Below, piece after piece: positions 1-33,394 of a stretch of DNA of 33,785 bases; within the stretch, counting starts at the first letter, position 1, and each line of letters opens with the position of its first letter. Origin of the DNA: Bacteroidia bacterium (GTDB lineage Bacteria; Bacteroidota; Bacteroidia; 2-12-FULL-35-15); assembly GCA_044377775.1 (NCBI GenBank), contig JBILYL010000002.1, forward strand, positions 1-33,785, in the 5' to 3' direction. The translations under genes and the position numbers were made by a program. The notes beneath the pieces are model-generated. The model saw nothing but the letters and a program-made list of their open reading frames with translations. It did not search any database and was not told the origin of the DNA.

Positions 1-807
<807 letters not shown>

Positions 808-12543: not shown

Positions 12544-12978
12544 TTTTATATCGATCTCGTTCTTCAAAGCGTTCTTTTTTTGTTGCAAAGATAGAAATAA
12601 AAAGTGCGGTTCGGCAGACCAAATAGAGAGAGGTGCTGAGTAGCCAAAAAGATAATTTCAGAACAAATTAAAAAATTGCCGGTCTTCGGCTTCAGAATAA
12701 AGTAGAAATTCGATTCCAAAACCACAAACAATTAGCTTTAAAATCCGAATTTCTTCCTAAATCGCTCTGATTTGAATAAAAACAAGAGAAAGAAAGCAGC
12801 AATTTCTAAACACGGAATACAACAATATAAGCTCATAATAAGGACGTTTCTAGCACTTCAGAAATTCAAAACCCTCAAAACCGTAAAAAAACATATTAAG
12901 AATGAATAAGGGGTATTTTTTACTAATTAAAATAATAAAAATATGCTGATGAAATGTTTGATTTATTAGATAAAGTGT

Positions 12979-12986
12979 TATTTTTG
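12979..12986 (+). promoter_or_regulatory. Candidate -7 box (TAnnTTTG) for the 13026 lipoprotein gene
   Basis: TATTTTTG lies 40 bp upstream of the ATG at 13026. This supports 13026, rather than 12954, as the real start. Confidence 0.4.
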
Positions 12987-13025
12987 AGCATTAATTTAAA
13001 AAACATCAAAAACCCCATAATTGAA

Positions 13026-13922
13026 ATGAGATTGAAATTTATCACATTTAGAGGAGCATTTTTATTCTTATCAGCTACCGCATTGCTTTCAGCAGGTTGC
13101 GGAGGTGGAGAAACAAAAGATTCGGATGAATTGCCTCCAGTTGACAGTACCCAAACAACTATTTTGAATGTAAACGGTGAGATTTTCAGTATCCCCTCTC
13201 CGATTCAAACAGCATTCCTAATTAAAGGAAGTGGTGCATCATACAGCAAAGATATCCTTAATCCATCAAATAAATCTTCAGAATATTCCACAAACTTTTC
13301 TAAAGCATTGAATTTAGGAATTTACGGTGCTGACTTAGGTTATGTGACTATTTATGATCAAAACCAAGATGCAATCGGATATTTAAATGCTGCTAAAAAA
13401 CTAGCAGATGAATTAGGTGTTTCAGGAGCATTTGATGCCAATACAATTGAGCGTTTCGCGAAAAACTTGGGAAACAAAGATTCAATGTTAGTTTTAGTGG
13501 GTGTTGCTTACCGTTCAAGTGATGCTTATTTAAAGAATAACGACCGCAGTGATGTTAGCGGATTGGTTTTAGCTGGAGGATGGTTGGAAAGTTTATATTT
13601 CGCGACAAACGTTTATAAAACAAAACCAAACGAAGATGTAAAACGAAGAATTGCTGAGCAAAAAACTTCGTTACAAAGTCTTATCAAATTACTTACTCAG
13701 TTTTACAGTCAACCGGAGTATACCGAGTTCATCGACAACCTGAATGATCTATCAACAGTTTTTGACGGAGTGGAATTTAAATACACGTATGAAAAACCAA
13801 CTACAGATGCTGACAAGAAAGTAACAACGATCAACAGCAAATCGACAGTAAATATCACTCCGGAACAAATTGAGTCAATCACTCAGAAAGTTAAGTCAAT
13901 CAGAAGTCAAATTGTAGGATAA
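13026..13922 (+). CDS. Hypothetical lipoprotein, paralogue of 32531..33394
   Basis: MRLKFITFRGAFLFLSATALLSAGC gives a signal peptide with a lipobox. The core SKALNLGIYGADLGY...NKDSML...LAGGWLESLYF is clearly homologous to SKALNLGVYGADLAY...NKDSLT...VAGSWLEGLYL in the 32531..33394 protein. Confidence 0.75.
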   Translation: MRLKFITFRGAFLFLSATALLSAGCGGGETKDSDELPPVDSTQTTILNVNGEIFSIPSPIQTAFLIKGSGASYSKDILNPSNKSSEYSTNFSKALNLGIYGADLGYVTIYDQNQDAIGYLNAAKKLADELGVSGAFDANTIERFAKNLGNKDSMLVLVGVAYRSSDAYLKNNDRSDVSGLVLAGGWLESLYFATNVYKTKPNEDVKRRIAEQKTSLQSLIKLLTQFYSQPEYTEFIDNLNDLSTVFDGVEFKYTYEKPTTDADKKVTTINSKSTVNITPEQIESITQKVKSIRSQIVG

Positions 13923-13970: not shown

Positions 13971-14405
13971 ATGAAAAAAGGAATTTTAAAATTAGTATTC
14001 GTTGTTGGTGGATTCATTACAATAAACAGTGCATCGGCACAAATTGCGGATACCGTTGCTTCACAATGTGCAAGACACTTAGAAAATCAATTCATCTCTG
14101 ACGGACAACAATATCGTGCATTATTGATGAACGCTGATGAAACAGCAGAGTTTCATACAACACTTTACGGAGGAACCGTTTATCGTATTGCTGCTTGCAG
14201 TGGATTATCTGATGGGAACTTAGTTTTCTCGGTATATGATTCAGAAAGAAATTTATTGTTTACAAACAGTGAATTTAAAAATGCTCCGTATTGGGATTTC
14301 AAAATCACAAACACACTTGATTGTTTAATAGAAGCAAAATTGAGCGGAAGCGCTCAAGGTTCTGGAAGAGCAGTTTTATTGATCGGCTTTAAACAACAAA
14401 AATAA
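13971..14405 (+). CDS. Small secreted hypothetical protein
   Basis: 144 aa. The signal peptide is MKKGILKLVFVVGGFITINSASAQ. It starts 48 bp after the lipoprotein gene with no intervening hairpin. I recognise no family. Confidence 0.65.
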   Translation: MKKGILKLVFVVGGFITINSASAQIADTVASQCARHLENQFISDGQQYRALLMNADETAEFHTTLYGGTVYRIAACSGLSDGNLVFSVYDSERNLLFTNSEFKNAPYWDFKITNTLDCLIEAKLSGSAQGSGRAVLLIGFKQQK

Positions 14406-14494: not shown

Positions 14495-17400
14495 ATGAGT
14501 GAACGAATATTAAAAGCCTTAATGCAAATGTTTGCAATTATTGCAAGGGTTGACGGCATCAATGACAATGGCCGCCTGATCGTGCAATCTTTCTTAAAGC
14601 AGCAGTTGAATCAGGAATTAGTGGATCAATACTTGGCAATATTTGATGAGTTTTTAGAAGCACATCACCAGGTTACAAAAAAGAAAGACGGAACAGCAAA
14701 ACGCACCTCTTTAAATTCGGTTAAAGTATTAAAGATCTGTACCCAGATAAACGGAGAACTTACTCAGGTTCAAAAAGTAGTTGTACTTCTGCGCTTGATC
14801 GAATTTATCAATTCAAACACAGAGATTGCTGAGCAGGAAATGGAATTCGTTATTACCGTAGCGGAAACATTTAATATTGAGGATGAAGAATTCAGACGCA
14901 GTATGGAATTTGTCAGAGCAGACATCAACAACATCCCTGACTCGTCTCGCATACTTGTGATCGACAATAAGACCAACCATAATTTCAAAGAAACAAAACA
15001 TATTTTTGCAGAAGGTGTTACCGGTCAGGCACGTGTTCTCTGGATTCAGAGTGTAAACATGTATGCCTTATTGTATTATGGCAAAAGTGACATTTTACTT
15101 AACGGACAATTATTAACGCAGGGTAAAGTATTCATCCTGACACCGGGATCATCATTACGGAGCTCGAAAGTAAAACCTGTTTATTACAGCGATATTCTGA
15201 GTGCCTTCATGAGTGACACTTCCAAGGCAAAGGTTTCTTTCGTAGTAAAAAACTTAGAGTATAAATTCAAAGGCGGTAAATTAGGTCTTCGTGATATTAA
15301 CTTCAGCGAAGACTCCGGGAAGCTTATCGGGATTATGGGTGGGTCAGGAGCAGGAAAATCGACACTTCTGAATGTGTTGAACGGAAATGAAATTCCTAGT
15401 GGTGGTTCTGTAAAAATCAACGGAATAAATATTCATTCCGAAAAAGCAAAAATCGAAGGAGTGATCGGACACGTTTCACAGGACGATTTACTGATCGAGG
15501 AATTAACTGTATTCCAGAATTTATTTTACAATGCGAAGCTTTGTTTTGGAAACAAAACAGATGTCGTGATCAACCAAATGGTTACCGATGTTTTAACGAG
15601 TATCGGTTTAATTGAAACCCGCGACTTAAAAGTAGGAAGCCCTTTAGAAAAAACGATCTCCGGTGGTCAACGTAAACGATTGAACATTGCATTGGAATTA
15701 ATTCGTGAACCATCTGTACTTTTTGTTGATGAGCCAACTTCCGGTTTATCATCAAGAGATTCGGAAAACATTATGGACTTACTTAAAGAACTTGCGCTGA
15801 AAGGCAAGTTAGTTTTTGTAGTAATCCACCAGCCATCATCCGACATTTTTAAAATGTTTGACAAGTTGATGATCCTGGATGTGGGTGGTTATCCTATTTA
15901 TTACGGAAACCCGGTTGACTCCGTTATCTATTTCAAAACGGTTGTAAACCACGTTAACAGTAATGAAAGTGAATGTATTGAATGCGGCAACGTTAACCCA
16001 GAACAAGTTTTCAATATTATAGAGTCAAAAGTATTGGACGAATATGGTAACATGACCCGTAACAGGAAAGTTTCTCCATCGGAATGGAATGTTCACTATA
16101 AAGAAAAAATTGAAAAAACCATTGAGGAGGTAGAAAGTATAACAGAAATTCCTGAAAGTACTTTTAAGATCCCTAACAAGTTCAAGCAGTTTAAAGTATT
16201 TATTACACGTGATGTATTATCGAAATTAACAAACACGCAATACATTTCTATTAATTTGCTGGAAGCACCTGCATTGGCATTCATCCTGGCTTACTTCATA
16301 AAATTTATCAATTTAGACTTGTCCAATAAAGTTGGTTACACCTTCCGCGAAAACGAAAACATCATCATTTACATGTTTATGGCTGTGGTTGTGGCCCTTT
16401 TCATTGGATTGACAGTAAGTGCTGAGGAGATCATCCGCGATAGAAAAATCCAAAAACGAGAATCATTCCTTAATCTGAGTAAAGGAAGTTACATCTGGTC
16501 GAAGATCATTATCATGTTCAGCTTATCTGCTATACAAGCTTTCTTATTTGTATTGGTAGGCAACTATGTTTTGGAAATCCAAGGAATGACTTTCCCTTAT
16601 TGGGTTCTATTGTTTAGTTCATTCTGCTTTGCCAATATGTTAGGACTCAACATCTCTTCCAGCTTTAACTCTGCTGTAACGATATACATTTTGATTCCTA
16701 TTTTAATTATTCCGCAATTATTATTTAGCGGTGTGATGGTTAAATTCGACAAATTAAACCCCATCATTACTTCCCAAAGTGTAGTTCCGGCAATTGGCGA
16801 CATGATGGCATCAAGATGGGCATTTGAAGCACTTGCAGTGAAGCAATTCAAAGAAAATAAATTCAATAAAAAAACGTACAAGTACGATAAAGCAATTCAC
16901 ATCGCCACCTACAAAAAAGATTATTGGATAATCGATATGGCGAAAAAGATCGATTTCTGCGAGGCAAACTTCAAAAAACCTGAAAGTAAGCAGGAAGTGA
17001 TTGCTGCATTAGCAATGATACAAAATGAACTTAAGAAAGAATTAAAAGTTCCAGGAAATGAAAAACTGAAAGTTGGCGGAATGGATAAATTAAACATTGG
17101 TGCGTTTAGTCCGACTGTTGCTACTCAAATGCGCGACTTCGTTTCAAATACTTTAAGAACCGTATATCTGAACAACTTCAAACGTGCGACTGAGTTAAAA
17201 GAAAAAGAAGTCAATCTGATGAACAAAGACAGTGTATCACGTTCACAGTATTTAAAAGATAAAGATGATTATGAGAACGAAAGTTTATCCGATCTGGTCA
17301 CAAACAGAAATACCCCTTATCGTATTTTGGATCTTAACGGTGCGTTTGTACAAAAGATCGACCCCATTTATCTGGATCCAGTGGATTCTGATCTAGGGCG

Positions 17401-17587
17401 TGCGCACTTTTTTGCACCGCGCAAAAAAATCTTCGGAAAATACTATGATACATACTGGGTTAACATCTGTGTGATATGGGGAATGTCTCTGACATTAGCT
17501 ATTACACTTTATTTTGATGTATTGAAAAATCTGATCGGTGGATTAGGAAACCTATTCGGCAGATTCAGCAGAAAAAAGGGACGTTAA
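14495..17587 (+). CDS. ABC transporter ATP-binding/permease fusion (ABCG / ABC-2 type) with a TerB-like N-terminal regulatory region
   Basis: 1030 aa. Contains Walker A GGSGAGKST, signature ISGGQRKRLNIA, Walker B LFVDEPTSGL and H-loop VIHQPS, followed by 5 hydrophobic helices, a ~200-aa hydrophilic insert and a final TM (WVNICVIWGMSLTLAITLYF). The first ~135 aa are helical and resemble TerB/DjlA-N-like domains. Confidence 0.9.
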   Translation: MSERILKALMQMFAIIARVDGINDNGRLIVQSFLKQQLNQELVDQYLAIFDEFLEAHHQVTKKKDGTAKRTSLNSVKVLKICTQINGELTQVQKVVVLLRLIEFINSNTEIAEQEMEFVITVAETFNIEDEEFRRSMEFVRADINNIPDSSRILVIDNKTNHNFKETKHIFAEGVTGQARVLWIQSVNMYALLYYGKSDILLNGQLLTQGKVFILTPGSSLRSSKVKPVYYSDILSAFMSDTSKAKVSFVVKNLEYKFKGGKLGLRDINFSEDSGKLIGIMGGSGAGKSTLLNVLNGNEIPSGGSVKINGINIHSEKAKIEGVIGHVSQDDLLIEELTVFQNLFYNAKLCFGNKTDVVINQMVTDVLTSIGLIETRDLKVGSPLEKTISGGQRKRLNIALELIREPSVLFVDEPTSGLSSRDSENIMDLLKELALKGKLVFVVIHQPSSDIFKMFDKLMILDVGGYPIYYGNPVDSVIYFKTVVNHVNSNESECIECGNVNPEQVFNIIESKVLDEYGNMTRNRKVSPSEWNVHYKEKIEKTIEEVESITEIPESTFKIPNKFKQFKVFITRDVLSKLTNTQYISINLLEAPALAFILAYFIKFINLDLSNKVGYTFRENENIIIYMFMAVVVALFIGLTVSAEEIIRDRKIQKRESFLNLSKGSYIWSKIIIMFSLSAIQAFLFVLVGNYVLEIQGMTFPYWVLLFSSFCFANMLGLNISSSFNSAVTIYILIPILIIPQLLFSGVMVKFDKLNPIITSQSVVPAIGDMMASRWAFEALAVKQFKENKFNKKTYKYDKAIHIATYKKDYWIIDMAKKIDFCEANFKKPESKQEVIAALAMIQNELKKELKVPGNEKLKVGGMDKLNIGAFSPTVATQMRDFVSNTLRTVYLNNFKRATELKEKEVNLMNKDSVSRSQYLKDKDDYENESLSDLVTNRNTPYRILDLNGAFVQKIDPIYLDPVDSDLGRAHFFAPRKKIFGKYYDTYWVNICVIWGMSLTLAITLYFDVLKNLIGGLGNLFGRFSRKKGR

Positions 17588-17647: not shown

Positions 17648-18208
17648 ATGGACACAATTTTAATTTACCTGCAACTGGGATTCCAACACATCCTCCCTTG
17701 GGGATTTGATCATGTACTTTTTATACTCTGTTTGTTTTTTTCCGGAGACAATCTCAAATCTATTCTATGGCAGAGCACCGCATTCACCCTTGCGCACTCA
17801 ATCTCACTGGCACTTGCAATGCTGCAATTCGTTCCTGTTTCATCAGCTTTAGTTGAACCGATGATTGCGATTTCGATAGTATTTGCATCGGTAGCAAACA
17901 TATGTACAGACAAACTAATAAAAACAAGAATTCTGCTTGTTTTTTTATTCGGATTAATTCACGGATTAGGATTTGCGGGAGTTTTAAACGAACTGGGATT
18001 GACAGAAGGGCAATTTTTCAAATCATTAATCAGTTTTAATATCGGAGTAGAATTCGGACAGTTGACAGTAATTTTAGCCGCTTGGTTTCTGATTGGAAAA
18101 TGGTTTCACAAAAAAACATGGTACCGGAGACGGATTGTTATACCCGTTTCTACAACCATTGCTGTAATTGCTGTTTATTGGACAATAGAAAGAATATATT
18201 GGGGATAA
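17648..18208 (+). CDS. HupE/UreJ-family membrane protein (putative Ni/Co or other metal transporter)
   Basis: 186 aa, polytopic. The N-terminal motif is GFQHILPWGFDHVLFILCL (H-x-x-x-G-x-D-H), with a later HG.GFAG. This matches the HupE/UreJ_2 pattern. Confidence 0.78.
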   Translation: MDTILIYLQLGFQHILPWGFDHVLFILCLFFSGDNLKSILWQSTAFTLAHSISLALAMLQFVPVSSALVEPMIAISIVFASVANICTDKLIKTRILLVFLFGLIHGLGFAGVLNELGLTEGQFFKSLISFNIGVEFGQLTVILAAWFLIGKWFHKKTWYRRRIVIPVSTTIAVIAVYWTIERIYWG

Positions 18209-18249: not shown

Positions 18250-18287
18250 AAAAAGCGAGATAAAATGTTATTTACACTTTATCTCGC
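18250..18287 (-). terminator. Rho-independent terminator of the siaB/siaC-like operon. It may also stop hupE-like transcription from the other side.
   Basis: Perfect 10-bp stem, GCGAGATAAA (18255-18264) with TTTATCTCGC (18278-18287), and a 13-nt loop. On the minus strand it is followed by TTTTTATTT. Confidence 0.8.
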
Positions 18288-18311: not shown

Positions 18312-18692
18312 TTATTCAGCTACCTGAACCATTTTAAATGGAACATTGATGATTGCTTGATAATCTTCACCTGCTTCTAACATATCCTCATCATCTTCTT
18401 CGTAGTACCAATTAATTACTACAGCACTTCCATTTTTATTGATTGCTTCCAATTTTTTGAATACATCTAAAATACATTTAGATGAACTCGTATTGAAATA
18501 TTCCAATTGAATATTTACGTTTGTTGCTGATTGTGGTTTTCCTGCATATTTTTCTAACCAATCCACTAATGGCTTATAAAACTCAATAGAGTTTTCAGGA
18601 ATAGAGCGACCTTTGATCTCTAAAAATCCTTTTCCTGTGTCAAAAGTAATAGTTGGTGTTTTTGGTGTTCCTTCAATTGAAATTGTTTCCAT
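18312..18692 (-). CDS. SiaC-like regulatory phosphoprotein (DUF1987)
   Basis: 126 aa. Contains PKTPTITFDTGKGFLEIKGRSIPENSIEFYKPLVDWLEKY, which is typical of the DUF1987 N-terminus, then LEYFNTSSSK with Thr at residue 68, and an acidic C-terminus, WYYEEDDEDMLEAGED. Confidence 0.85.
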   Translation of the reverse strand: METISIEGTPKTPTITFDTGKGFLEIKGRSIPENSIEFYKPLVDWLEKYAGKPQSATNVNIQLEYFNTSSSKCILDVFKKLEAINKNGSAVVINWYYEEDDEDMLEAGEDYQAIINVPFKMVQVAE

Positions 18693-18702
18693 AATCTTAT
18701 TT

Positions 18703-19248
18703 TTATTGTGATATTTTAATGTTTAAACTGAAAAATGAAAATTTATCATCTACAGGTGAAAAGCTAAAATTCAGTTTCTCTCCTGTTTTGCGTGCAATGT
18801 CAATCATTCCTAATCCACCTCCACCTTTCATGGACATTTCACCGTTATTTAATACCGCTTTATAATATTCTTTTAATTCTTCTTTAGAAAGTAAATTGAT
18901 ATCTTCTAATCGCTTCTTTAACCCTTCTACATTTTCTTTTCTGATATAATTACCGGTAACGATGTTGTATTGGTTATCAATTTTACCGATCATAAAAATA
19001 GCAGAGCGGATAACATCATTTTGTTCAGGAGCAACTTCGTCCATATGATGGTAAAGATTTTGAAGACACTCCACTAAAACATTGTAAACTTTCTTTTTGA
19101 TTTTGGGTTCTTCCTGCAAATTATCCAATTTGGATTCCATTATTTGCAAAATGGAGGTCAGCAATTCAGAAGTGATATCACCTTTAAATGAAAGCATAAT
19201 ATTATTACGCTCCATTTTATCATAAAAATCGTAAATATCTAACATCAT
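18703..19248 (-). CDS. SiaB-like protein kinase (GHKL/anti-sigma-kinase-like ATPase fold)
   Basis: 181 aa. Contains NIMLSFKGDIT...L, an N-box-like ECLQNLYHH, and a Gly-rich ATP lid GGGGLGMIDIARKTG. It ends 10 bp upstream of the DUF1987 gene on the same strand. Confidence 0.8.
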   Translation of the reverse strand: MMLDIYDFYDKMERNNIMLSFKGDITSELLTSILQIMESKLDNLQEEPKIKKKVYNVLVECLQNLYHHMDEVAPEQNDVIRSAIFMIGKIDNQYNIVTGNYIRKENVEGLKKRLEDINLLSKEELKEYYKAVLNNGEMSMKGGGGLGMIDIARKTGEKLNFSFSPVDDKFSFFSLNIKISQ

Positions 19249-19304
19249 AAACGCTAAGTTAAATCGATAAAGCTGATATTGATCCTGTTAATTAATTAAT
19301 TAAG

Positions 19305-19312
19305 CAAATATA
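19305..19312 (-). promoter_or_regulatory. Candidate -7 box (TATATTTG on the minus strand) for the siaB/siaC-like operon
   Basis: The plus strand reads CAAATATA, which is TAnnTTTG on the minus strand. It lies 57 bp upstream of the ATG at 19248 and is bracketed by the inverted repeat TCCTGTT...AACAGGA. Confidence 0.4.
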
Positions 19313-19418
19313 TAAATAAGTTTAGTTAATCAAACAGGAACTCACGTTTTTTTACTTCTAATTAATTAACTTATAAACAAAGTCAAATTGGTCATTCGAA
19401 AAGGGTTTCCTTTCAAAA

Positions 19419-20243
19419 TCAATTCATTGTAAACGCGAACGTATTCCCATTTATGGTAAGTGTAGCCTGGTTATCGCAAACACCGGTTCCATAATCAACG
19501 GTACGGACTGCTAAACCTTCCGGTGTCAAATCAATTCGTCCGGAATCGATCCATGGACAAGATGATTTTTTAACAACGGGAACCACCACATTTACGGTAT
19601 AATTTTTCCCTTCTCGATTTTTCCCAACAGCACTTCCTGTGAATTCAAAAACATCATTACTTGCAATCGTATCACCCATTCCAGCAGTTTGTGTTAATGT
19701 TCTTGAACACGCCCACTCCATACTCCAGCTGGCTGCGATACATTTTCCACCGATAATAGAATTCGTATATGAATTTAGAGAATTGTGAACGATCATCATA
19801 CTATCGCAAGCATACTGAACAAAATTGGAAGTACCTGCTTTTTTTACATAATAATTCAATAATTTTACGGTAACAGTTGCACCTAAACTATCCCACGAAC
19901 GGTCAAATGTAGCCTGAATCTGACCTTTACGTGTTTTATTATCTGTAGCATCAACAGTTCCAACAGTACCATAATCAAGGATCAATGTGATCGGGAAACC
20001 ATTCAAAGTATCAGTAGGGTCAATGATAATAGCAGGTGAACCAGACATCATCGATTTCACACCTTGTTCCTTAATGGCAATACTATTGATAACCGGCATG
20101 CGAGAGGTAAATTCACCTTCACAAACGCTATTATCAATAGCCGATTGAGTTTCTGTATCCGGTTCTTCCTTTTTACAAGAAGTAAATGTAAATGTTGTGA
20201 TTGCAGAAACAAAAAAGAGAGAAGAAAAAAGAATACGTTTCAT
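19419..20243 (-). CDS. Hypothetical Cys-containing lipoprotein
   Basis: 274 aa. MKRILFSSLFFVSAITTFTFTSC gives a signal peptide with a lipobox. The mature part appears beta-rich and has six further Cys. I recognise no family. Confidence 0.72.
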   Translation of the reverse strand: MKRILFSSLFFVSAITTFTFTSCKKEEPDTETQSAIDNSVCEGEFTSRMPVINSIAIKEQGVKSMMSGSPAIIIDPTDTLNGFPITLILDYGTVGTVDATDNKTRKGQIQATFDRSWDSLGATVTVKLLNYYVKKAGTSNFVQYACDSMMIVHNSLNSYTNSIIGGKCIAASWSMEWACSRTLTQTAGMGDTIASNDVFEFTGSAVGKNREGKNYTVNVVVPVVKKSSCPWIDSGRIDLTPEGLAVRTVDYGTGVCDNQATLTINGNTFAFTMN

Positions 20244-20286
20244 ATTATTGGAGTTTTGTGTTATAGCTTTATTATATCCTGAGCAT

Positions 20287-20294
20287 CAAATATA
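20287..20294 (-). promoter_or_regulatory. Candidate -7 box (TATATTTG on the minus strand) for the lipoprotein gene
   Basis: The plus strand reads CAAATATA, 44 bp upstream of the ATG at 20243. The extended context AAATATATGAAT recurs at 23667. Confidence 0.4.
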
Positions 20295-20345
20295 TGAATA
20301 TTTTACTATTTTCCAAAATAAAGAGTTCAATGGAATTAAGGAAAA

Positions 20346-23300
20346 TTAAAAACGAATTCCGATAACAAGAATGTCATCGATCTGCTGCAAATCGCCCCTC
20401 CAGTTTTCAAATGTCAGGTCGAGCGTTTTGGCTTGATCTGCCATACTTTCAGACTGCATTGCAAGCAGCAACTCATTGAATCGTTTTACCATAAATTTCT
20501 TACCTTTTTCACCACCAAATTGGTCTGCATAACCATCCGAAGCCATGTAAACTGTATCGCCCTTCTCTAGCGCAAGTGTATGCGAAGTAAATTTCCTGTC
20601 GGCATCAAGCTGTGAGCCACCAATCGAATTTTTATCCGCGTCAATTTTGTTGAATTTATCTTGATTTACAATAAACAATGGACGAAAGGCCCCTGCATAT
20701 TCCAAGGTATTATTTGCACTATCGATGCAGCAGATCGCTACATCCATACCATCGCTGGTATCTACCACATTGGTTCCCTGTTTTAATGCTGCCTGAACAC
20801 CACGGTGCAATGCGTTCAATATTTCATCCGGTTGGGTAATTCCATTCTCGCTAATGATCTGATTTAACAAATTATGTCCAATCATACTCATAAATGCCCC
20901 CGGAACACCGTGTCCTGTGCAATCTACAGCAGCAATAATTTTCTTACCTTCTTTTACCCCAAACCAGTAAAAATCGCCACTAACTATATCTTTAGGTTTA
21001 TAGAGAATAAAAGAGTCGGGGAAATACTTGTATACTTGCTCCAAAGGAGGCAAAATCGCCAGCTGGATACGTTTCGCGTATTGAATGCTGCTGGTGATGT
21101 CTTTGTTTTTTTGTGCCAATTCCTGAGTCCGTTCTTCAACTTTTTCTTCCAGAATTTTATTTTCACGTTTAATGGCACTTGTTCTGTATTTCAAAAAGCC
21201 CCAAAAACTTCCAATAACAATAAATATACAAAGTCCATAAAACATTTTGGTTTTCCAGAATGGCGGGTTGATCCTGATAAAAATCGTTACACCTTCGTTA
21301 TTCCATATTCCATCATTATTTGCTCCTCTCACCCGCAATACGTAATCTCCACCGCTTAATTCTGTATAACTTGCATACCGCTGCGTACTCGGTGGCGACC
21401 AGTCGGCATCAACACCTTCTAGCATATAGGAATATTTATTTTTCCCGGGCATTTGATAATCCAGAGCCACAAAATCAAACGAAAAGAAATTTTGTTTGTA
21501 AGACAGTTCCAAATATTTTTTATCGTAGATAAGCGTATCCAACAAAACTTCTTTACCAAAGCGTTTATAGGATATTATGTGTACCTGTGGGACATTCGGA
21601 TTGTCTTGAATTTTATCAGGGAAAAAAGTATTGAAGCCATTAACGCCTCCTAAAAATATTTCACCGTTTTGTGTTTGATAATATGCTCCCTGATTAAATT
21701 CCAAACCCTGCAAACCATCATTAACATCGTAATTCCTGAATGCAGAACCATTTTCATTTTTCTGTTCAGGGTTAAATTTTGACACTCCTTTATTTGTGCT
21801 CATCCATAAAAAGCCTTTACTATCAAGTAATATGGAATATATAAAATCATTCGGCAAACCATTTTTCTCAAAATATGCTTCAAATTTCCCTGTTTTGTCG
21901 TCCAGTTTATTCAAGCCATTTGAAGTCCCGAACCACATATTTCCATGCTTATCTTCCTGAGAACAATTCACCGAATTCGAACTGATGCTGTTAGCAATTT
22001 CATCCCTGTTAAAAACCCTAAAAACGTTTGAAGCGGGATTGAAGCGAATCACTCCTCCTCCGTCAGTAGCGATCCAGATATTGTTTTTACTATCTTCAAA
22101 AATATTATAGATATTATTAATACTCAATCCGTTTTCACTATTATAATTTGTGAATTTCTTTGTGCTCTTATCGTAAACAAATACTCCGGCACCATAGGTT
22201 CCTATCCAAATTTTACCCCGGGAATCCTGAAAAAGTGAAACAATTGTTGCGGCACTCACAGCTTTAAACTCAGGATAAACAGTGATTTTTTTTGTTTTTT
22301 TATCATAGGAATTTAATCCTGCACCCCAGGTTCCAACCCAGATAATACCATCACGATCTTCCATCAAAGAAAGAATGGAATTATTTCCGGTAGTGGATAT
22401 TTGAGGATAATGCTGATAAGTATTTGTTTCCCGATCCAACGTGGATAAGCCACCGCGACCGGTTCCAACCCACAACAAACCGTCTTTATCCTGAAGCAAT
22501 GCATATACAATGTTACTCTTCAAACCATTTGTTGCACCTGAATTGTTTGTATAAAACTTAAATTTATTGGATGCACGGAAATGTGCATTTACTCCTCCAC
22601 CTTCTGTGCCGATCCATACAGAACCTACTTTATCGTGGTAGATGCACTTAATTTGATTGCTTGATATTCCAGTAAGATTTTTTTCATCAAAAGAAATACT
22701 TCGAAAACGACCGGTTTTTTTATTGTAAAGATCGATTCCTGCTCCATAGGTCGCCAACCAGAGAATACCATTGGCATCTTCGGTAATACTCATCACCTGA
22801 TTATTTACAAGGGAATTTTGATCTCCTTCTTTTTCTCTTAAATTATTGATGAATTTACCTGTTTGCGGATTAAAGATCTGGACTCCTGCTCCGAACGTTC
22901 CAATCCAAAAAACGCCTTCCTTGTCTTCGTAGATAGACCGGATCAAATTAATATTCTCATACAGTAAGTTCCCCGAATTATCGAACTGATTGAAGTGTTC
23001 GAATTTTCCTGTTTTTTTATCGTAAGAGTTCAATCCGCCACCATATGTACCGATCCACAATTTACCATCTGCCGTTTCGTGCAGACACCAGGCGTTATTA
23101 TTGGAAATCGAATTTGCGTTATTGTTATCGTTTAAATAACGGGTGATTTTTTTTGTTTTAGAGTTATATGAGTTTAATCCATCATCAGTACCGATCCATA
23201 ATAATCCATCACTATCTTCCAAAATGGATTTTACATTATTATTACTCAAGCTGTTTTTATTTCCGGAAACGCCAATGTGATGAACAAACTTCCCTGTACT

Positions 23301-23648
23301 CAGATTGTACGAATCAAAACCGCCACCGTTAGTTCCGATGACTAGATCACCATTTTTGGTTTCATACAATGCATTGATAAAATTATTGGAAACAGAATTC
23401 GAATCGAGCTGATTGTTTTTATAAACGGTGATGCTGTATCCGTCATATTTATTGAGACCATCCTGGGTTCCATACCACATAAAACCTTTACTATCCTGCA
23501 GAACACAATTCACAACACCCATAGACAAGCCTTGTTCGGCAGTAATGTGGCTGAATTTAAATTCCTGGGAATTACCTGAAATTGTTAATCCAAATAGCAA
23601 TGACAGCGTTAATAAAACTCTTAAATATGTGGAGCAAAATTTATTCAA
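20346..23648 (-). CDS. Sensor PP2C/SpoIIE-family Ser/Thr phosphatase with a periplasmic double Reg_prop beta-propeller, a Y_Y_Y domain and one TM (SiaA-like role)
   Basis: 1100 aa. Only a TTG start is available upstream of the signal peptide LRVLLTLSLLFGLTISGNSQ. By eye there are about 14 repeats of [LIMF]W[IVLF]GT..G[GL]..[YF][DN], for example LWIGTDDGLNSYN and IWVGTWGAGLNSYD. These are followed by YSYMLEGVDADWS...GDYVLRVRGANNDGIWN (Y_Y_Y), a TM (MFYGLCIFIVIGSFWGFLKY), a coiled coil, and PP2C motifs SGDFYW, DCTGHGVPGA, DGMD, SDGYADQ and DDILVIGIRF. Confidence 0.9.
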   Translation of the reverse strand: MNKFCSTYLRVLLTLSLLFGLTISGNSQEFKFSHITAEQGLSMGVVNCVLQDSKGFMWYGTQDGLNKYDGYSITVYKNNQLDSNSVSNNFINALYETKNGDLVIGTNGGGFDSYNLSTGKFVHHIGVSGNKNSLSNNNVKSILEDSDGLLWIGTDDGLNSYNSKTKKITRYLNDNNNANSISNNNAWCLHETADGKLWIGTYGGGLNSYDKKTGKFEHFNQFDNSGNLLYENINLIRSIYEDKEGVFWIGTFGAGVQIFNPQTGKFINNLREKEGDQNSLVNNQVMSITEDANGILWLATYGAGIDLYNKKTGRFRSISFDEKNLTGISSNQIKCIYHDKVGSVWIGTEGGGVNAHFRASNKFKFYTNNSGATNGLKSNIVYALLQDKDGLLWVGTGRGGLSTLDRETNTYQHYPQISTTGNNSILSLMEDRDGIIWVGTWGAGLNSYDKKTKKITVYPEFKAVSAATIVSLFQDSRGKIWIGTYGAGVFVYDKSTKKFTNYNSENGLSINNIYNIFEDSKNNIWIATDGGGVIRFNPASNVFRVFNRDEIANSISSNSVNCSQEDKHGNMWFGTSNGLNKLDDKTGKFEAYFEKNGLPNDFIYSILLDSKGFLWMSTNKGVSKFNPEQKNENGSAFRNYDVNDGLQGLEFNQGAYYQTQNGEIFLGGVNGFNTFFPDKIQDNPNVPQVHIISYKRFGKEVLLDTLIYDKKYLELSYKQNFFSFDFVALDYQMPGKNKYSYMLEGVDADWSPPSTQRYASYTELSGGDYVLRVRGANNDGIWNNEGVTIFIRINPPFWKTKMFYGLCIFIVIGSFWGFLKYRTSAIKRENKILEEKVEERTQELAQKNKDITSSIQYAKRIQLAILPPLEQVYKYFPDSFILYKPKDIVSGDFYWFGVKEGKKIIAAVDCTGHGVPGAFMSMIGHNLLNQIISENGITQPDEILNALHRGVQAALKQGTNVVDTSDGMDVAICCIDSANNTLEYAGAFRPLFIVNQDKFNKIDADKNSIGGSQLDADRKFTSHTLALEKGDTVYMASDGYADQFGGEKGKKFMVKRFNELLLAMQSESMADQAKTLDLTFENWRGDLQQIDDILVIGIRF

Positions 23649-23665
23649 AATCTTTTATTTGGAAG

Positions 23666-23673
23666 TAAATATA
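23666..23673 (-). promoter_or_regulatory. Candidate -7 box (TATATTTA, one mismatch to TAnnTTTG) for the propeller-PP2C gene
   Basis: The plus strand reads TAAATATA, 18 bp upstream of the TTG at 23648. Confidence 0.3.
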
Positions 23674-23811
23674 TGAATTTTTGGGAAAGGTAATTGAGTA
23701 ATGGGGAATTGTGTGATTGGGTGACAGGAAAGCAGCAGAACACATCTGTCTCAATTTACTTAGTAAGCTTTTTACTTCATCACTATATAACCTTAATTAC
23801 TTTATCACCCC

Positions 23812-25215
23812 TTATATTCTAATACCAATAACCAAAATATCATCGACTTGCTCCAATTCTCCTCTCCATAATTCGAAATGATAATTCAGGATATGCTTTT
23901 GTTCCTCCATGTTGTTATCCTGCATCTCGATCAACAACTCCTGAAATTTTTTGTATTTGAATTTCTTACCTTTAGGTCCACCAAACTGATCAGCATAACC
24001 ATCAGTAAATAAATACACCGAATCACCTTTTTCCAATTTTATCACATGGTTAGTAAATACTTTCACATGCGCATCTTCCGTATCAGCCCCAATCGCTTGT
24101 TTATCGGCCTTCACTTCAATAATTTGTTTTTGGCGTACAATGTATATCGGATTATTTGCTCCGGCATATTGCAGTTCCATCCGATCGAAATTAATGGCAC
24201 ACAATGCCATATCCATTCCGTCTTTAATGGAATTAAGTGTTTTGGTAATTTCTTTATTTAAAAAGCCCAATGAATCAGCAGGGTTTTTCACCGCAGCAAC
24301 TGAAGTAGTTTGATTTAAAATGGTACTACCAATAATGCTCATCAATGCACCGGGAACGCCATGACCGGTACAATCTACTGCAGCCATAACCACAATACGT
24401 TCTGAAGGATTCCCATTTTGAGGAGTTGTGCTTACCGCAGCATGCCAATAGAAATCACCACTCACAATGTCTTTTGGTTTAAAAAGTATAAAATAATCGC
24501 TCAGAACGTCCCTGATCTTTTCTTCAGGCGGCAAAATTGCTTGTTGAATACGTTGAGCATAATTGATACTGTCGCGGATATCTTTATTTTTTTCTTCAAT
24601 GATCTCGTTTTTGATCTCCAGCAAATTATTGGATTCGGCCAACGCCAAACGTGCAATGATCTCCTTTTTAGTAAGGTTTGTTCTGGTATGAATCAACAAA
24701 ATTGTAAACAAGGCAACAGAGAGTGTGAGCATCCCTCCATTGATCAGTATCTCACCTACCGACAAGTGACCAAAAAGACTAAAGCAAATAATGTTTGCCA
24801 CTAAGGAAATGCCGACTACCCAATAAGAATAAATGGGGCGCCACAACACAAACATTCCGGCACCTATAAATAAGGCGATGTAAGCAAAGGTATGTTTCTG
24901 CAATTCAGAAACATTTAAAACACTGAACATATAAGCATTCTGAACAGAGATGCCGATAAAAGGTATAAATGCAATGATCTCGGGGTGTTTCAGGAATTTG
25001 CTTTTCATAAGCACAACAACAAGTGTCAATATAGCGACAGTAATGCGAAAAATCAGAAAATCAGTAAAATGATCGGGACTATTAAAATAATCGCCTATGG
25101 CCCATATGGGATTTAAACCAACAGCGACCCAAGCAATTAGCACGTGGTATTTAAAAGCTGCTGCTTTTAATTCGGTTTTCCAATCAACAGGAGTAATTTG
25201 ACTGATTTTTGCCAT
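23812..25215 (-). CDS. Polytopic-membrane sensor PP2C/SpoIIE-family Ser/Thr phosphatase (SiaA-like role)
   Basis: The ATG at 25215 (MAKISQITPVDW) is preferred over the ORF-track TTG at 25236. The N-terminal ~190 aa hold about 6-7 hydrophobic helices. A coiled-coil linker follows, then a PP2C domain closely paralogous to that of 20346..23648 (KPKDIVSGDFYW, AAVDCTGHGVPGA, DGMD, TDGYADQFGG.KGKKF, DDILVIGIRI). Confidence 0.9.
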   Translation of the reverse strand: MAKISQITPVDWKTELKAAAFKYHVLIAWVAVGLNPIWAIGDYFNSPDHFTDFLIFRITVAILTLVVVLMKSKFLKHPEIIAFIPFIGISVQNAYMFSVLNVSELQKHTFAYIALFIGAGMFVLWRPIYSYWVVGISLVANIICFSLFGHLSVGEILINGGMLTLSVALFTILLIHTRTNLTKKEIIARLALAESNNLLEIKNEIIEEKNKDIRDSINYAQRIQQAILPPEEKIRDVLSDYFILFKPKDIVSGDFYWHAAVSTTPQNGNPSERIVVMAAVDCTGHGVPGALMSIIGSTILNQTTSVAAVKNPADSLGFLNKEITKTLNSIKDGMDMALCAINFDRMELQYAGANNPIYIVRQKQIIEVKADKQAIGADTEDAHVKVFTNHVIKLEKGDSVYLFTDGYADQFGGPKGKKFKYKKFQELLIEMQDNNMEEQKHILNYHFELWRGELEQVDDILVIGIRI

Positions 25216-25233
25216 AAGAATTATTAATGCAAT

Positions 25234-25241
25234 CAAATTTA
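25234..25241 (-). promoter_or_regulatory. Candidate -7 box (TAAATTTG on the minus strand) for the 7TM-PP2C gene
   Basis: The plus strand reads CAAATTTA, 19 bp upstream of the ATG at 25215. Confidence 0.4.
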
Positions 25242-25430: not shown

Positions 25431-26174
25431 ATGTCCGGAATTAAACATACAGAATGGTTTGAAAGTTGGTTTGATTCGCCTTACTATCACCTGCTTTATA
25501 AAAACAGGGACTTTTCAGAAGCGGAATTGTTTATCGACAACCTGATAACACTACTTCATCCTGAAAAGGGAAGCCGTTTCATGGATCTGGGCTGCGGCAA
25601 AGGACGCCACTCTTTTTATCTCAATCAAAAAGGTTTTGATGTAACCGGAGTGGATCTTTCGGAGGAAAGTATCCGTTGTGCAAAACAATCTGAGAATGAG
25701 CATTTACATTTTTACGTGCATGATATGCGTAAACTTTTCAGAACCAATTATTTTGATGTAATTGTAAATTTATTTACCAGCTTCGGTTATTTTGAGCAAA
25801 AACGAGATGATCAGGCAACCTTCGATGCTTTATGCAAAGGATTGAAACCGGAAGGAATATTTGTTATGGACTTTATGAATTCGAAAAAAGTTATTTCAAA
25901 TTTATCTCTCTTCGAAACAAAAATTATTGAAGAAATTGAATTTAAGATCACTAAAAAAATTGAAAATAATTTTATTGTCAAACAAATTGAATTCTTCGAC
26001 AAAGGAAAACATTACTGTTTTCAGGAGCGTGTAAAAGCATTAATACTAAGCGATTTCGAGAAATACTTTGAAGCAAATAAACTTAAAATAGTACATTTGC
26101 GGGGCAATTACAATCTGGAGGAATTTAATGAAATAAGTTCGGACAGGTTGATCATTGTTGCGAAAAAAGTCTAA
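25431..26174 (+). CDS. Class I SAM-dependent methyltransferase
   Basis: 247 aa. Contains FMDLGCGKGRHS (motif I), VTGVDLS, and a later D.IVNLFTSFGY. The substrate is unknown. Confidence 0.85.
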   Translation: MSGIKHTEWFESWFDSPYYHLLYKNRDFSEAELFIDNLITLLHPEKGSRFMDLGCGKGRHSFYLNQKGFDVTGVDLSEESIRCAKQSENEHLHFYVHDMRKLFRTNYFDVIVNLFTSFGYFEQKRDDQATFDALCKGLKPEGIFVMDFMNSKKVISNLSLFETKIIEEIEFKITKKIENNFIVKQIEFFDKGKHYCFQERVKALILSDFEKYFEANKLKIVHLRGNYNLEEFNEISSDRLIIVAKKV

Positions 26175-26235
26175 GATCGTTTCGTTCACTGTAATGACGG
26201 GATAAATTAAATTCGCGTAAAAAAACATTTACAAC

Positions 26236-26952
26236 ATGAATTATTTAATGTACATCATTCTATTTTTATCTGTAATCCTTAGCGGAACGAGTGTGCTATT
26301 CATAAACATCAGCAGTAAACACTTAAAGCTGCTGCTCTCTTTCAGTGGTGCTTTCTTGTTTGCAATCAGTGTACTTCACCTGATCCCTGAAATTTATTTG
26401 TCGGGGACGCCCGATATCGGCATTTATATATTGATTGGTTTTTTTGCTCAGATATTATTGGAGTTTTTCTCTGAAGGGATTGAACACGGACACATTCATG
26501 TTCACAAGCACGACCACAAACACACAGCATTTCCATACGCAATGATGATCGGCTTATCCATCCATTCATTTTTAGAAGGGATGCCTTTGGCGAATATGGC
26601 AACAGATGCCCACAATTCTTTATTGACAGGAATTGTAATGCACAACATTCCTATTGCTATTGCACTGATGACAATGCTTTTACAATCACACATCAGCAAA
26701 CAAAAGGCAATAATTTGGCTTATCGTATTTGCTCTGGTTACACCATTAGGGACGTTAATCAGCTATGCCATCGGACAAAACCTGCTTTTTGATCTTTCCA
26801 TCTATTTTGACAAGATCATGGCAGTAGTAATTGGAATTTTCCTACATATCTCCACAACTATACTATTTGAATCGAGTGAAAATCATCGGTTTAACCTTAT
26901 AAAGTTTGCAATGATCTTATTGGGAGCCGCTACAGCAATAGTGATGATGTAG
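26236..26952 (+). CDS. ZIP-family divalent metal transporter (ZupT-like)
   Basis: 238 aa, polytopic. Contains a His-rich loop EHGHIHVHKHDHKH, and HSFLEGMP / HNIPIA motifs characteristic of ZIP transporters. Confidence 0.85.
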   Translation: MNYLMYIILFLSVILSGTSVLFINISSKHLKLLLSFSGAFLFAISVLHLIPEIYLSGTPDIGIYILIGFFAQILLEFFSEGIEHGHIHVHKHDHKHTAFPYAMMIGLSIHSFLEGMPLANMATDAHNSLLTGIVMHNIPIAIALMTMLLQSHISKQKAIIWLIVFALVTPLGTLISYAIGQNLLFDLSIYFDKIMAVVIGIFLHISTTILFESSENHRFNLIKFAMILLGAATAIVMM

Positions 26953-32530: not shown

Positions 32531-33394
32531 TTATTGCCCTTTAATTATTTTATTCCGAAGCGCTTCTACCTTTGAATGAATGGCAATCAATTGTTTTTCA
32601 TTCATCTCGACATCTGATGTAAGATTATTATATTCAGATGTAATTTTCTTTAATTCAGAAATAATTCCGGAAATAAATTCATCTGTTTGATTTTCTTCAA
32701 GCAATTTTATCACGATTAATAAACTCTGCTTTTGCTCACCAATAATATTGTAAAGTGATTTATTTTCAGCTGTTTTAGGTGTATTGATAAATGTTTTTGT
32801 TGATAAATATAGCCCTTCCAGCCAACTACCGGCAACGACTAAAGCAGCCAGGCTGACACGCTCATTATTTTTCAAAGCTTTATCAACCTGACTGTATGAA
32901 TCATAAACAATTCTGGTAAGAGAATCCTTATTGTCTTTAAACTTTGAATATTTATCCATCATCGACTGATCAAACGCATAAGGGATATTTAGTTCTTCCG
33001 CTAACCTCTTTGTGTTTTTTACATATGCTCCTAATTGCTGAAACTGCTCGTACGTTACCGAATAAGCCAGATCAGCACCATAGACACCTAAATTCAAAGC
33101 TTTTGAATGATATTGATTATACTTTGATACAGCTGTAATGTCATTCATTGCAGTTTGATCAAAAGGTACTTTTTTGCTATAGAGGTTTTCAATGATTTCA
33201 AACGGGAAAGGAATATCACTGATTACCATATCGTATTCTGCAAAAGAAATCTCCGAAACCTTCTTTTCTAATAAAACCAAAGAATCTCCTGAATTAAATG
33301 CATCCTCCTTGTGGGATGAAGTATCCGCGTTACAAGCGAATAAGAAAAGGGAAAAGAACAACGCCAATATGTAAAACGGGGAAATTGTTTTCAT
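32531..33394 (-). CDS. Hypothetical lipoprotein, paralogue of 13026..13922
   Basis: 287 aa. MKTISPFYILALFFSLFLFAC gives a signal peptide with a lipobox. See the shared core motifs listed under 13026..13922. Confidence 0.75.
   Translation of the reverse strand: MKTISPFYILALFFSLFLFACNADTSSHKEDAFNSGDSLVLLEKKVSEISFAEYDMVISDIPFPFEIIENLYSKKVPFDQTAMNDITAVSKYNQYHSKALNLGVYGADLAYSVTYEQFQQLGAYVKNTKRLAEELNIPYAFDQSMMDKYSKFKDNKDSLTRIVYDSYSQVDKALKNNERVSLAALVVAGSWLEGLYLSTKTFINTPKTAENKSLYNIIGEQKQSLLIVIKLLEENQTDEFISGIISELKKITSEYNNLTSDVEMNEKQLIAIHSKVEALRNKIIKGQ

Follow-up and report, generated by a model that had tools for sequence, protein, structure and literature searches.

A widely conserved Bacteroidia gene module related to Pseudomonas SiaABC, with no cyclase gene adjoining it

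The SiaABCD system of Pseudomonas aeruginosa combines a membrane PP2C phosphatase (SiaA), a kinase (SiaB) and a phosphoprotein of the DUF1987 family (SiaC) with SiaD, and a SiaABCD module is also present in Comamonas testosteroni. The diguanylate cyclase SiaD is the only characterised target of SiaC, and 14 positions of P. aeruginosa SiaC contact the SiaD stalk (PMC8457831). The fold of the Sia switch protein relates it to the partner-switching systems (PMC7647112, PMC8457831). In this work we describe a Sia-type module from a Bacteroidia bacterium. It lies in a stretch of 33,785 nucleotides of contig JBILYL010000002.1, referred to below as the window, where the open reading frame (ORF) listing gives five consecutive minus-strand genes between positions 18312 and 25236. 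A sequence-only reading of the window had taken these genes to encode two membrane PP2C/SpoIIE phosphatases, an unknown lipoprotein, a SiaB-like kinase and a SiaC-like phosphoprotein. The five proteins were searched against the Pfam and NCBIfam profiles and matches to PDB profiles and structures were added. The gene order and the assignments held at the family or subfamily level.

The module is like P. aeruginosa SiaABCD in having a membrane PP2C phosphatase, a SiaB-family kinase and a SiaC (DUF1987) phosphoprotein. The SiaC proteins align without gaps, the residues Y65, N67, T68 and S69 are kept, and the PP2C domains are most similar to that of SiaA. However, several features set the module apart from SiaABCD. 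It has no SiaD/GGDEF gene and a terminator follows siaC. Its sensors are a periplasmic double propeller with a Y_Y_Y domain and a domain with six transmembrane (TM) segments, not the SiaA N-terminus. It has an inserted, conserved lipoprotein gene and two phosphatases, 9 of the 14 SiaD-contact residues are changed, and the NCBIfam equivalog cutoffs are missed. The module is also like the RsbU/RsbV/RsbW and SpoIIE/SpoIIAA/SpoIIAB systems, as a PP2C phosphatase and a GHKL-type Ser/Thr kinase have opposite effects on a small switch protein that is STAS-like. Unlike those systems, the module locus has no sigma partner, the switch protein belongs to DUF1987/SiaC and is not a canonical STAS protein, and the strongest constraint is on the phosphoprotein rather than on the kinase. 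The literature searched contained no study of Sia-like or partner-switching systems in Bacteroidota.

Two sets of related loci, 160 in total and with flanks of 8-10 kb, were compared with the window. The genome set is made up of 80 loci that come from species-representative genomes and encode SiaC proteins of 74-99% identity to that of the window, and its ORFs were clustered; these loci and the window make up 81 sources. The metagenome set consists of 80 further loci from a scan seeded with a sister SiaC, and their SiaC proteins have a median identity of 71% to that of the window. The Bacteroidia module is related to Pseudomonas SiaABC, is widely conserved and has no cyclase gene adjoining it. 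The siaB and siaC genes are the invariant core of the module. They adjoin in 79 loci, where the median distance between them is 13 bp; in the window it is 10 bp. The lipoprotein and PP2C genes are lineage-variable additions. The lipoprotein gene is found directly 5' of siaB in 51 of 74 informative loci, and a PP2C gene adjoins its upstream side in 32 of 38.

The SiaC phosphoprotein and the SiaB kinase

The SiaC-family phosphoprotein has 126 amino acids (aa; 18312..18692, minus strand). It matches Pfam PF09345 with E=4.4e-46 and its gapless alignment with P. aeruginosa SiaC (6kko_C) has E=2e-20. The SiaB-family kinase has 181 aa (18703..19248, minus strand). It matches DUF6272 with E=3.2e-43 and the NCBIfam SiaB_fam_kinase model (NF038262) with 171.4 bits against a cutoff of 85, and it aligns over its full length with P. 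aeruginosa SiaB (6kko_A; E=4.6e-16). The profile hidden Markov model searches thus place the 126-aa and 181-aa proteins in the SiaC and SiaB families, as had been proposed. Among the relatives of SiaB the ExxQN motif is found in 132 of 135 and GGGGLG in 117 of 135. A second SiaB-like gene, convergent to siaC, was seen in locus L010.

The switch motif of SiaC, Y65-x-N67-T68-S69, is identical to the P. aeruginosa residues. YFNTSS is kept in 160 of 163 SiaC relatives and the acidic alpha3 13-mer EDDEDMLEAGEDY in 123 of them. Relatives of the protein number in the thousands. Identity is 85-98% for the top 120, of which the named ones are labelled Bacteroidia or Bacteroidetes. Fifty-four of the 126 positions are invariant among 81 sequences. 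SiaC is conserved on par with class-I aldolase and AccD, and far above SiaB. The mean pairwise identities in the 23 loci that have both aldolase and accD genes are 89.8% for SiaC, 88.3% for the class-I aldolase, 87.2% for AccD and 82.6% for SiaB. For the divergent pairs among 17 sources with an ABC transporter gene (16 loci and the window), the means are 77.8% for SiaC, 54.3% for the ABC protein and 43.6% for SiaB. Since SiaB is the less conserved of the two in these pairs, SiaC and not SiaB is indicated as the partner-binding component.

The 14 positions that are equivalent to the SiaD contacts are all conserved in Bacteroidia, 13 of them being invariant and position 10 being conserved at 95%. 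Nine of the 14 differ from P. aeruginosa, eight of them by non-conservative replacements and one by M75L, and the replacements include D29R, D79K, R103D and D114I. From this comparison of residues, the face appears to be a conserved target surface that is chemically different from the Pseudomonas one.

The SiaC/DUF1987 family comprises 5,157 clusters at 50% identity. Among its long members SiaB-SiaC fusions, tandem SiaC proteins and HEAT-SiaC proteins are clear, and no informative output domain fused to SiaC was found among them. One SLT-SiaC fusion was set aside as a possible gene-call artefact. The proteins examined among the fusions were P0358, P0400, P0361 and P0371. A fusion of 654 aa has a weak SiaB-like (DUF6272) domain and three SiaC domains, and a HEAT-repeat protein of 715 aa bears two SiaC domains. 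Bacteroidales-type loci encode a second, divergent SiaC paralog of 132-161 aa (L053:4679-5164, L069:4765-5163, L077:2152-2556). Its gene sits between GMP synthase-like and S41 peptidase-like genes, and its switch position is Ser, not Thr (Y-x-N-S).

Sensor phosphatases, lipoprotein and transcription units

The large sensor phosphatase (1100 aa; 20346..23648, minus strand) has Pfam matches to Reg_prop (11 repeats, 7.8e-74), Y_Y_Y (7.4e-17) and SpoIIE (2.6e-18). The protein begins with a signal/TM1 segment, which is followed by a periplasmic double beta-propeller with Y_Y_Y, one TM segment at about 801-819, a linker and the PP2C domain. The periplasmic part is homologous over its full length to the Reg_prop double propeller and Y_Y_Y of the Bacteroides hybrid two-component systems (HTCS; 4a2l/4a2m, 3v9f, 3ott), with E=3.6e-130 for 4a2l and E=1.5e-93 for 3v9f. 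Unlike the HTCS proteins, which have histidine kinase, receiver and AraC DNA-binding modules, the large phosphatase has only SpoIIE/PP2C after the TM segment. The large phosphatase shows that the HTCS type of glycan sensor can also be coupled to a phosphatase acting on Ser/Thr. The protein of 4a2l/4a2m is the heparin-sensing BT4663, so a periplasmic glycan would be a reasonable guess for the propeller ligand.

The small sensor phosphatase (474 aa; 23812..25236, minus strand) has a multi-pass membrane region and a SpoIIE/PP2C domain (Pfam SpoIIE, 1.1e-18). About six TM segments at the N-terminus are joined by a coiled-coil linker to a SiaA-like PP2C domain that matches the SiaA PP2C structure 6k4e with E=1.3e-30 and retains the metal-binding motifs GDFY, DCxGHGVPGALM, TDG and DDI. 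No Pfam match was obtained for the membrane domain, even at E<=10. Both PP2C domains match the C-terminal part of the NCBIfam SiaA model only. The sequence-only reading had given the module two input phosphatases. Both are present in the window, but the gene of the small one is confined to the window's close clade (L001, L003, L005, L006 and L010), and in L006 and L010 the small phosphatase is the sole phosphatase. In the closest relative, L001, the lipoprotein gene is preceded by three PP2C genes, which encode proteins of 467, 759 and 1100 aa.

The lipoprotein (274 aa; 19419..20243, minus strand) has a signal peptide and the lipobox cysteine C23 and belongs to an unnamed family. Searches of Pfam and NCBIfam gave no match, and every one of its 110 homologs is annotated as hypothetical. 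In the family C23 is invariant and S22, K24, K25 and D29 are nearly invariant. The window protein reads C23-K-K-E-E after the lipobox, and the family consensus is SCKKExPDTE with a variable second acidic position. The surface-lipoprotein export signal (LES) of Bacteroidetes is K-(D/E)2 after the lipobox Cys (PMC5080379). The CKKEE of the window protein would fit this LES-like pattern. An AlphaFold2 (AF2) model of the protein (predicted local distance difference test score, pLDDT, 83; predicted template modelling score, pTM, 0.78) has a mostly beta fold. No PDB fold matched the model at E<0.1, the best match having E=0.2 and a template modelling (TM) score below 0.3.

The lipoprotein gene is also found in other arrangements. 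In L022 and L023 a repeat-rich protein of about 1205 aa that is not a PP2C is encoded upstream of it; by eye the sequence of this protein resembles PKD-type repeats with a secretion-type C-terminal tail. The lipoprotein gene and siaB are oriented divergently in L055 and L079. These four loci indicate that the lipoprotein stays tied to siaBC without an adjoining phosphatase. RcsF and NlpE are outer-membrane lipoprotein co-sensors. By analogy only, the module lipoprotein is like them in being an envelope lipoprotein that is genetically tied to an inner-membrane signalling protein. Unlike RcsF and NlpE, it shows no sequence or fold similarity and matches no PDB fold. The gene linkage and this likeness suggest that the lipoprotein may be an envelope co-sensor.

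An intrinsic terminator with a 14-bp stem and a T-run lies directly after siaC (18255..18287, minus strand). The consensus of the Bacteroidota sigma-A -7 element is TAnnTTTG (PMC9723704). By motif match, -7 boxes (TATATTTG) are located 57 nt 5' of siaB (19305..19316, minus strand) and 44 nt 5' of the lipoprotein gene (20287..20298, minus strand). Among 51 loci, 43 have TAnnTTTG about 41 nt 5' of the lipoprotein gene, and 48 of 77 have it about 42 nt 5' of siaB, but only 3 of 82 have it before siaC; the background is 0.10 per 150 nt. The longer motif TTCATATATTTG, with at most one mismatch, has three matches in the window, which lie 5' of siaB, of the lipoprotein gene and of the large PP2C gene. 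A scan for sigma-70-type promoters showed no enrichment, as expected for Bacteroidota. The -7-like box at 23666-23677 ends just 18 nt from the predicted TTG start of the large PP2C gene; the true start of this gene may be further downstream, or its mRNA leader may be very short.

Because of the conserved -7 motifs and the terminator after siaC, the genes are read as at least three transcription units that follow one another on the same strand, siaBC being the core. From these predicted elements siaBC would be co-transcribed from its own promoter and end at the terminator. The earlier description of a five-gene module is correct in that the genes are consecutive and on the same strand, but they do not form one simple operon, as TAnnTTTG motifs precede the lipoprotein gene and siaB. 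ORF, Rfam and tRNA scans of the window revealed no plausible missed small ORFs, Rfam families or tRNAs. ORFs of about 84 aa right after siaC in L021, L026 and L027 are mutually non-homologous and probably spurious.

Search for an output gene and the neighbouring units

Pfam scans were made of the other window ORFs of at least 90 aa, the partial ORF at 1-801 (minus strand) being left out. They found no GGDEF, EAL, HD-GYP, sigma, anti-sigma or helix-turn-helix regulator domain, and the ORFs scanned are housekeeping or transport genes. Apart from the partial ORF, this bears out the earlier statement that the window has no recognisable output gene. No GGDEF, EAL or HD-GYP motif was found in 1,975 ORFs, and a six-frame translation of the window and 164 fetched loci, about 2.08 Mb in all, contained no RxGGDEF-type motif. 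A GGDEF gene just outside the module, which would have spoken against the earlier reading, is absent in all 160 related loci. Bacteroidetes have few or no GGDEF genes (PMC1183210, PMC7288161). The sequence-only reading had also proposed that the switch is independent of cyclic di-GMP (c-di-GMP). The absence of an adjoining cyclase at the 160 loci agrees with this proposal; independence itself is drawn from the neighbourhoods and from the literature on scarce GGDEF genes.

The comparison of gene neighbourhoods that had been recommended with that reading yielded recurrent flanks which the reading had missed, namely a methyltransferase-ZIP pair and an ABC exporter, but no cyclase. A Pfam census of 116 representative neighbours contained no recurrent regulatory domain. 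The aldolase, accD and extracytoplasmic function (ECF) sigma genes found 3' of siaC (22, 22 and 14 of 63 loci) were rejected as candidates; they were treated as clade-level synteny of housekeeping genes and are missing from the window and from other clades. The gap between siaC and the aldolase gene has a median of 101 bp. In L001 an ECF sigma gene occupies the position that is held by the HupE gene in the window.

A class-I S-adenosylmethionine (SAM) methyltransferase gene (25431-26174, plus strand) and a ZIP-family metal transporter gene (26236-26952, plus strand), both assigned with Pfam, lie upstream of the module. In the window this pair is divergent from the small phosphatase gene and adjoins it, so the PP2C and lipoprotein genes look as if they had been inserted in the interval from the methyltransferase gene to siaB. 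When both sets are taken together, 52 of 117 informative loci have the methyltransferase gene as the first, divergently oriented gene upstream of the module, and this adjacency spans more than 20 different contexts on the downstream side and six compositions of the module. Among the 44 metagenome-set loci that have upstream sequence, 41 have the methyltransferase and ZIP genes at most three genes upstream of siaB, and in 38 of these the methyltransferase gene is immediately adjoining and divergent. In the genome set the methyltransferase gene is within three genes in just 9 of 62 loci. The pair is the most persistent siaBC association found, though it is missing from other clades. Searches of NCBIfam and the PDB gave only generic class-I matches for the methyltransferase, and its best NCBIfam match is TehB, far below threshold. 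The genes round the module have a metal or metalloid flavour (a HupE/UreJ-family transporter at 17648-18208, the ZIP transporter, the methyltransferase and a TerB-like domain at 14495-15268), which may be coincidence.

The second unit encodes an ABCG-type half-transporter of 1030 aa with N-terminal TerB-like and FHA-like domains (14495-17587, plus strand; Pfam, NCBIfam and AF2), a secreted protein of 144 aa, c10 (13971-14405, plus strand), and a lipoprotein of 322 aa, c11 (12954-13922, plus strand). The three genes form a conserved operon, and by Pfam and NCBIfam searches c10 and c11 are exported proteins outside known families. A 287-aa paralog of c11 is encoded 18 kb off in the window (32531-33394). 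The ABC operon adjoins siaC convergently in 17 of the 81 sources and in about 10 of 41 loci of the metagenome set. The 17 sources fall into three groups that differ in their upstream context and include Bacteroidales and Marinilabiliales loci with siaBC only. In three independent ABC-centred contexts (L081, L082, L083/L084), SiaB and SiaC are absent within 10 kb.

Residues 1-258 of the ABC protein (14495-15268) were modelled by AF2 with a pLDDT of 83.9 and comprise a TerB-like helical domain and a beta domain. The top 50 Foldseek matches of the beta domain are mostly FHA domains, with probabilities up to 1.0, target-normalised TM-scores of 0.4-0.5 and a best E of 0.016. Profile searches of the N-terminus gave no FHA signal at the sequence level; a profile search of the PDB yielded mostly ABC ATPases and was uninformative. 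In the beta domain N203 and G204 are 95-98% conserved, and N203-G204, G218 and R222 are nearly invariant or invariant. The candidate phosphothreonine-binding residues are G177 and R180 (both only 67% conserved) and S186 (74%), and there is no His at the expected spacing. The methyltransferase-ZIP pair and the TerB/FHA-like ABC exporter are the sole neighbourhood-based candidates for the output.

The proposed switch, its alternatives and its significance

The explanation that we favour, with a probability of about 0.62, is a Bacteroidia-wide Sia-type threonine-phosphorylation switch whose target would be something other than an adjoining SiaD-type cyclase, its mechanism being taken from homology with P. 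aeruginosa. SiaB would keep Thr68 of SiaC phosphorylated. A periplasmic cue, probably a glycan or an envelope-derived ligand, would be sensed by the propeller/Y_Y_Y region of the large phosphatase, and the lipoprotein may assist as a co-sensor in the manner of RcsF and NlpE. The 6-TM small phosphatase would sense a membrane cue. These cues would switch on the PP2C domains, SiaC would be dephosphorylated, and unphosphorylated SiaC would bind its target via the alpha2/alpha3 face round Thr68. In this lineage the siaBC core would have acquired the lipoprotein gene and the two membrane PP2C genes, upstream and on the same strand. A different, important target must exist, because a phylum largely without c-di-GMP enzymes keeps the machinery and SiaC is as conserved as central metabolic enzymes. 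The target is most likely one strongly conserved, probably basic partner that is encoded elsewhere or by a conserved flanking unit.

Several points weigh against this explanation. The P. aeruginosa system is the source of what is proposed on phosphorylation, on signalling direction and on binding of a target, and the co-sensor role of the lipoprotein is drawn by analogy only. The scores fall below the NCBIfam equivalog cutoffs, with 104.9 against 150 for SiaC, 96.1 against 225 for SiaB, and 212.8 and 175.1 against 700 for SiaA, 175.1 being the score of the small phosphatase. The module proteins are assigned to SiaA, SiaB and SiaC at the family level only. The loci were picked by similarity to SiaC, which inflates the conservation of SiaC, and the benchmarks within the loci reduce this bias only partly. 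The conserved face of SiaC must also fit SiaB and the PP2C domains, and its conservation alone is no proof of a third partner. The cyclase scan spans the neighbourhoods of the loci and not the whole source genome, so that a distal cyclase is compatible with the results.

The alternatives differ in what the switch acts on. Among the possible targets we rate a distal conserved partner highest, followed by the methyltransferase-ZIP unit and next by the FHA-like ABC exporter, with a sigma factor via SiaB or a distal cyclase last. It is unlikely that the output is the divergent methyltransferase-ZIP unit (25431-26952), bound and regulated post-translationally by SiaC or SiaB. This alternative draws on the persistence of the methyltransferase junction over many contexts and module compositions and on the apparent insertion of the PP2C and lipoprotein genes behind it. 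The junction is kept though the methyltransferase has diverged to 40-56% and ZIP to 34-58% identity, and the downstream junction is scrambled, any one gene being common to at most 10 of 41 loci. However, the methyltransferase gene does not adjoin the module in the large aldolase/accD clade or in Bacteroidales-type loci, and a generic class-I methyltransferase has no known tie to Ser/Thr signalling. The sequence of the methyltransferase is far less conserved than that of SiaC, contrary to expectation for a protein that binds an invariant surface, and a conserved divergent order could be explained by inherited synteny or a shared promoter architecture. Still more doubtful is a role of the convergent ABCG-type exporter (14495-17587), in which the FHA-like domain would read phospho-Thr68 and phosphorylated SiaC would gate export. 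FHA-regulated ABC transporters such as mycobacterial Rv1747 resemble such an arrangement, and the convergent position in three context groups, the almost exclusively FHA matches at the top of the Foldseek list and the nearly invariant residues of the beta domain speak for it. Against it, the Foldseek E values are all at least 0.016 and are not accompanied by an FHA signal in sequence, conservation of the canonical GR and SxxH residues that bind phosphothreonine is not clear, and the exporter occurs in contexts away from SiaB and SiaC. The housekeeping gene rlmL is part of the ABC synteny block, and the ABC and siaC genes are convergent, not co-transcribed, with the HupE gene between them in the window.

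The remaining alternatives would keep a known type of output. In a classic partner switch as in RsbW/RsbV, the SiaB-like kinase would double as an anti-sigma factor or sequester another protein, and unphosphorylated SiaC would set the sequestered protein free. SiaABC has been described as a partner switch in which SiaB has the position of the anti-sigma kinase and SiaC is structurally like the anti-sigma antagonists (PMC7647112). In the genome set 14 of 63 loci have an ECF sigma gene among the first three downstream genes, and in L001 such a gene adjoins the module. This possibility is nevertheless very improbable. The Pfam scans of the window found no sigma factor, the nearby ECF sigma factor has its own membrane protein (a presumed anti-sigma factor), and the aldolase and accD genes separate the sigma gene from siaC. 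SiaB is also far less conserved than SiaC, and sigma-factor sequestration is not known for P. aeruginosa SiaB. Equally improbable, in our judgement, is an output that is still c-di-GMP, made by a SiaD-like diguanylate cyclase encoded far from the module. SiaD is the one precedent for a SiaC target and the scan was confined to neighbourhoods, but GGDEF motifs are absent from about 2.08 Mb round 160 related loci, Bacteroidetes have few if any GGDEF genes (PMC1183210, PMC7288161), and the nine replaced SiaD-contact positions, some of them charge-reversed, are fixed in their new state.

One further proposal combines several of these elements and is put forward tentatively, as something that we think improbable. 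The siaBC genes may be a c-di-GMP-independent switch in which the nearly invariant and strongly acidic SiaC surface (YFNTSS and EDDEDMLEAGEDY) controls the methyltransferase-ZIP unit or, by docking of phospho-Thr68, the ABCG exporter, in place of a cyclase or a sigma factor. The input would be envelope glycans, sensed by the HTCS-type propeller of a PP2C phosphatase together with a lipoprotein of new fold. If it were true that a transport or modification unit is under SiaC control, this would be a new output class for partner-switching systems.

Annotation pipelines recognise parts of the module, because its families are already named in Pfam and NCBIfam. New here are a Sia-type switch with an output other than an adjoining cyclase, sensor domains like those of hybrid two-component systems and a new lipoprotein family. 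For all the size of the SiaC/DUF1987 family, its known function is limited to the activation of one diguanylate cyclase in Pseudomonas. Finding the target of the switch in Bacteroidia would show the general role of DUF1987 switches. For Bacteroidia, which are known mostly for sensing glycans at the level of transcription, it would also bring to light a signalling route that acts post-translationally.

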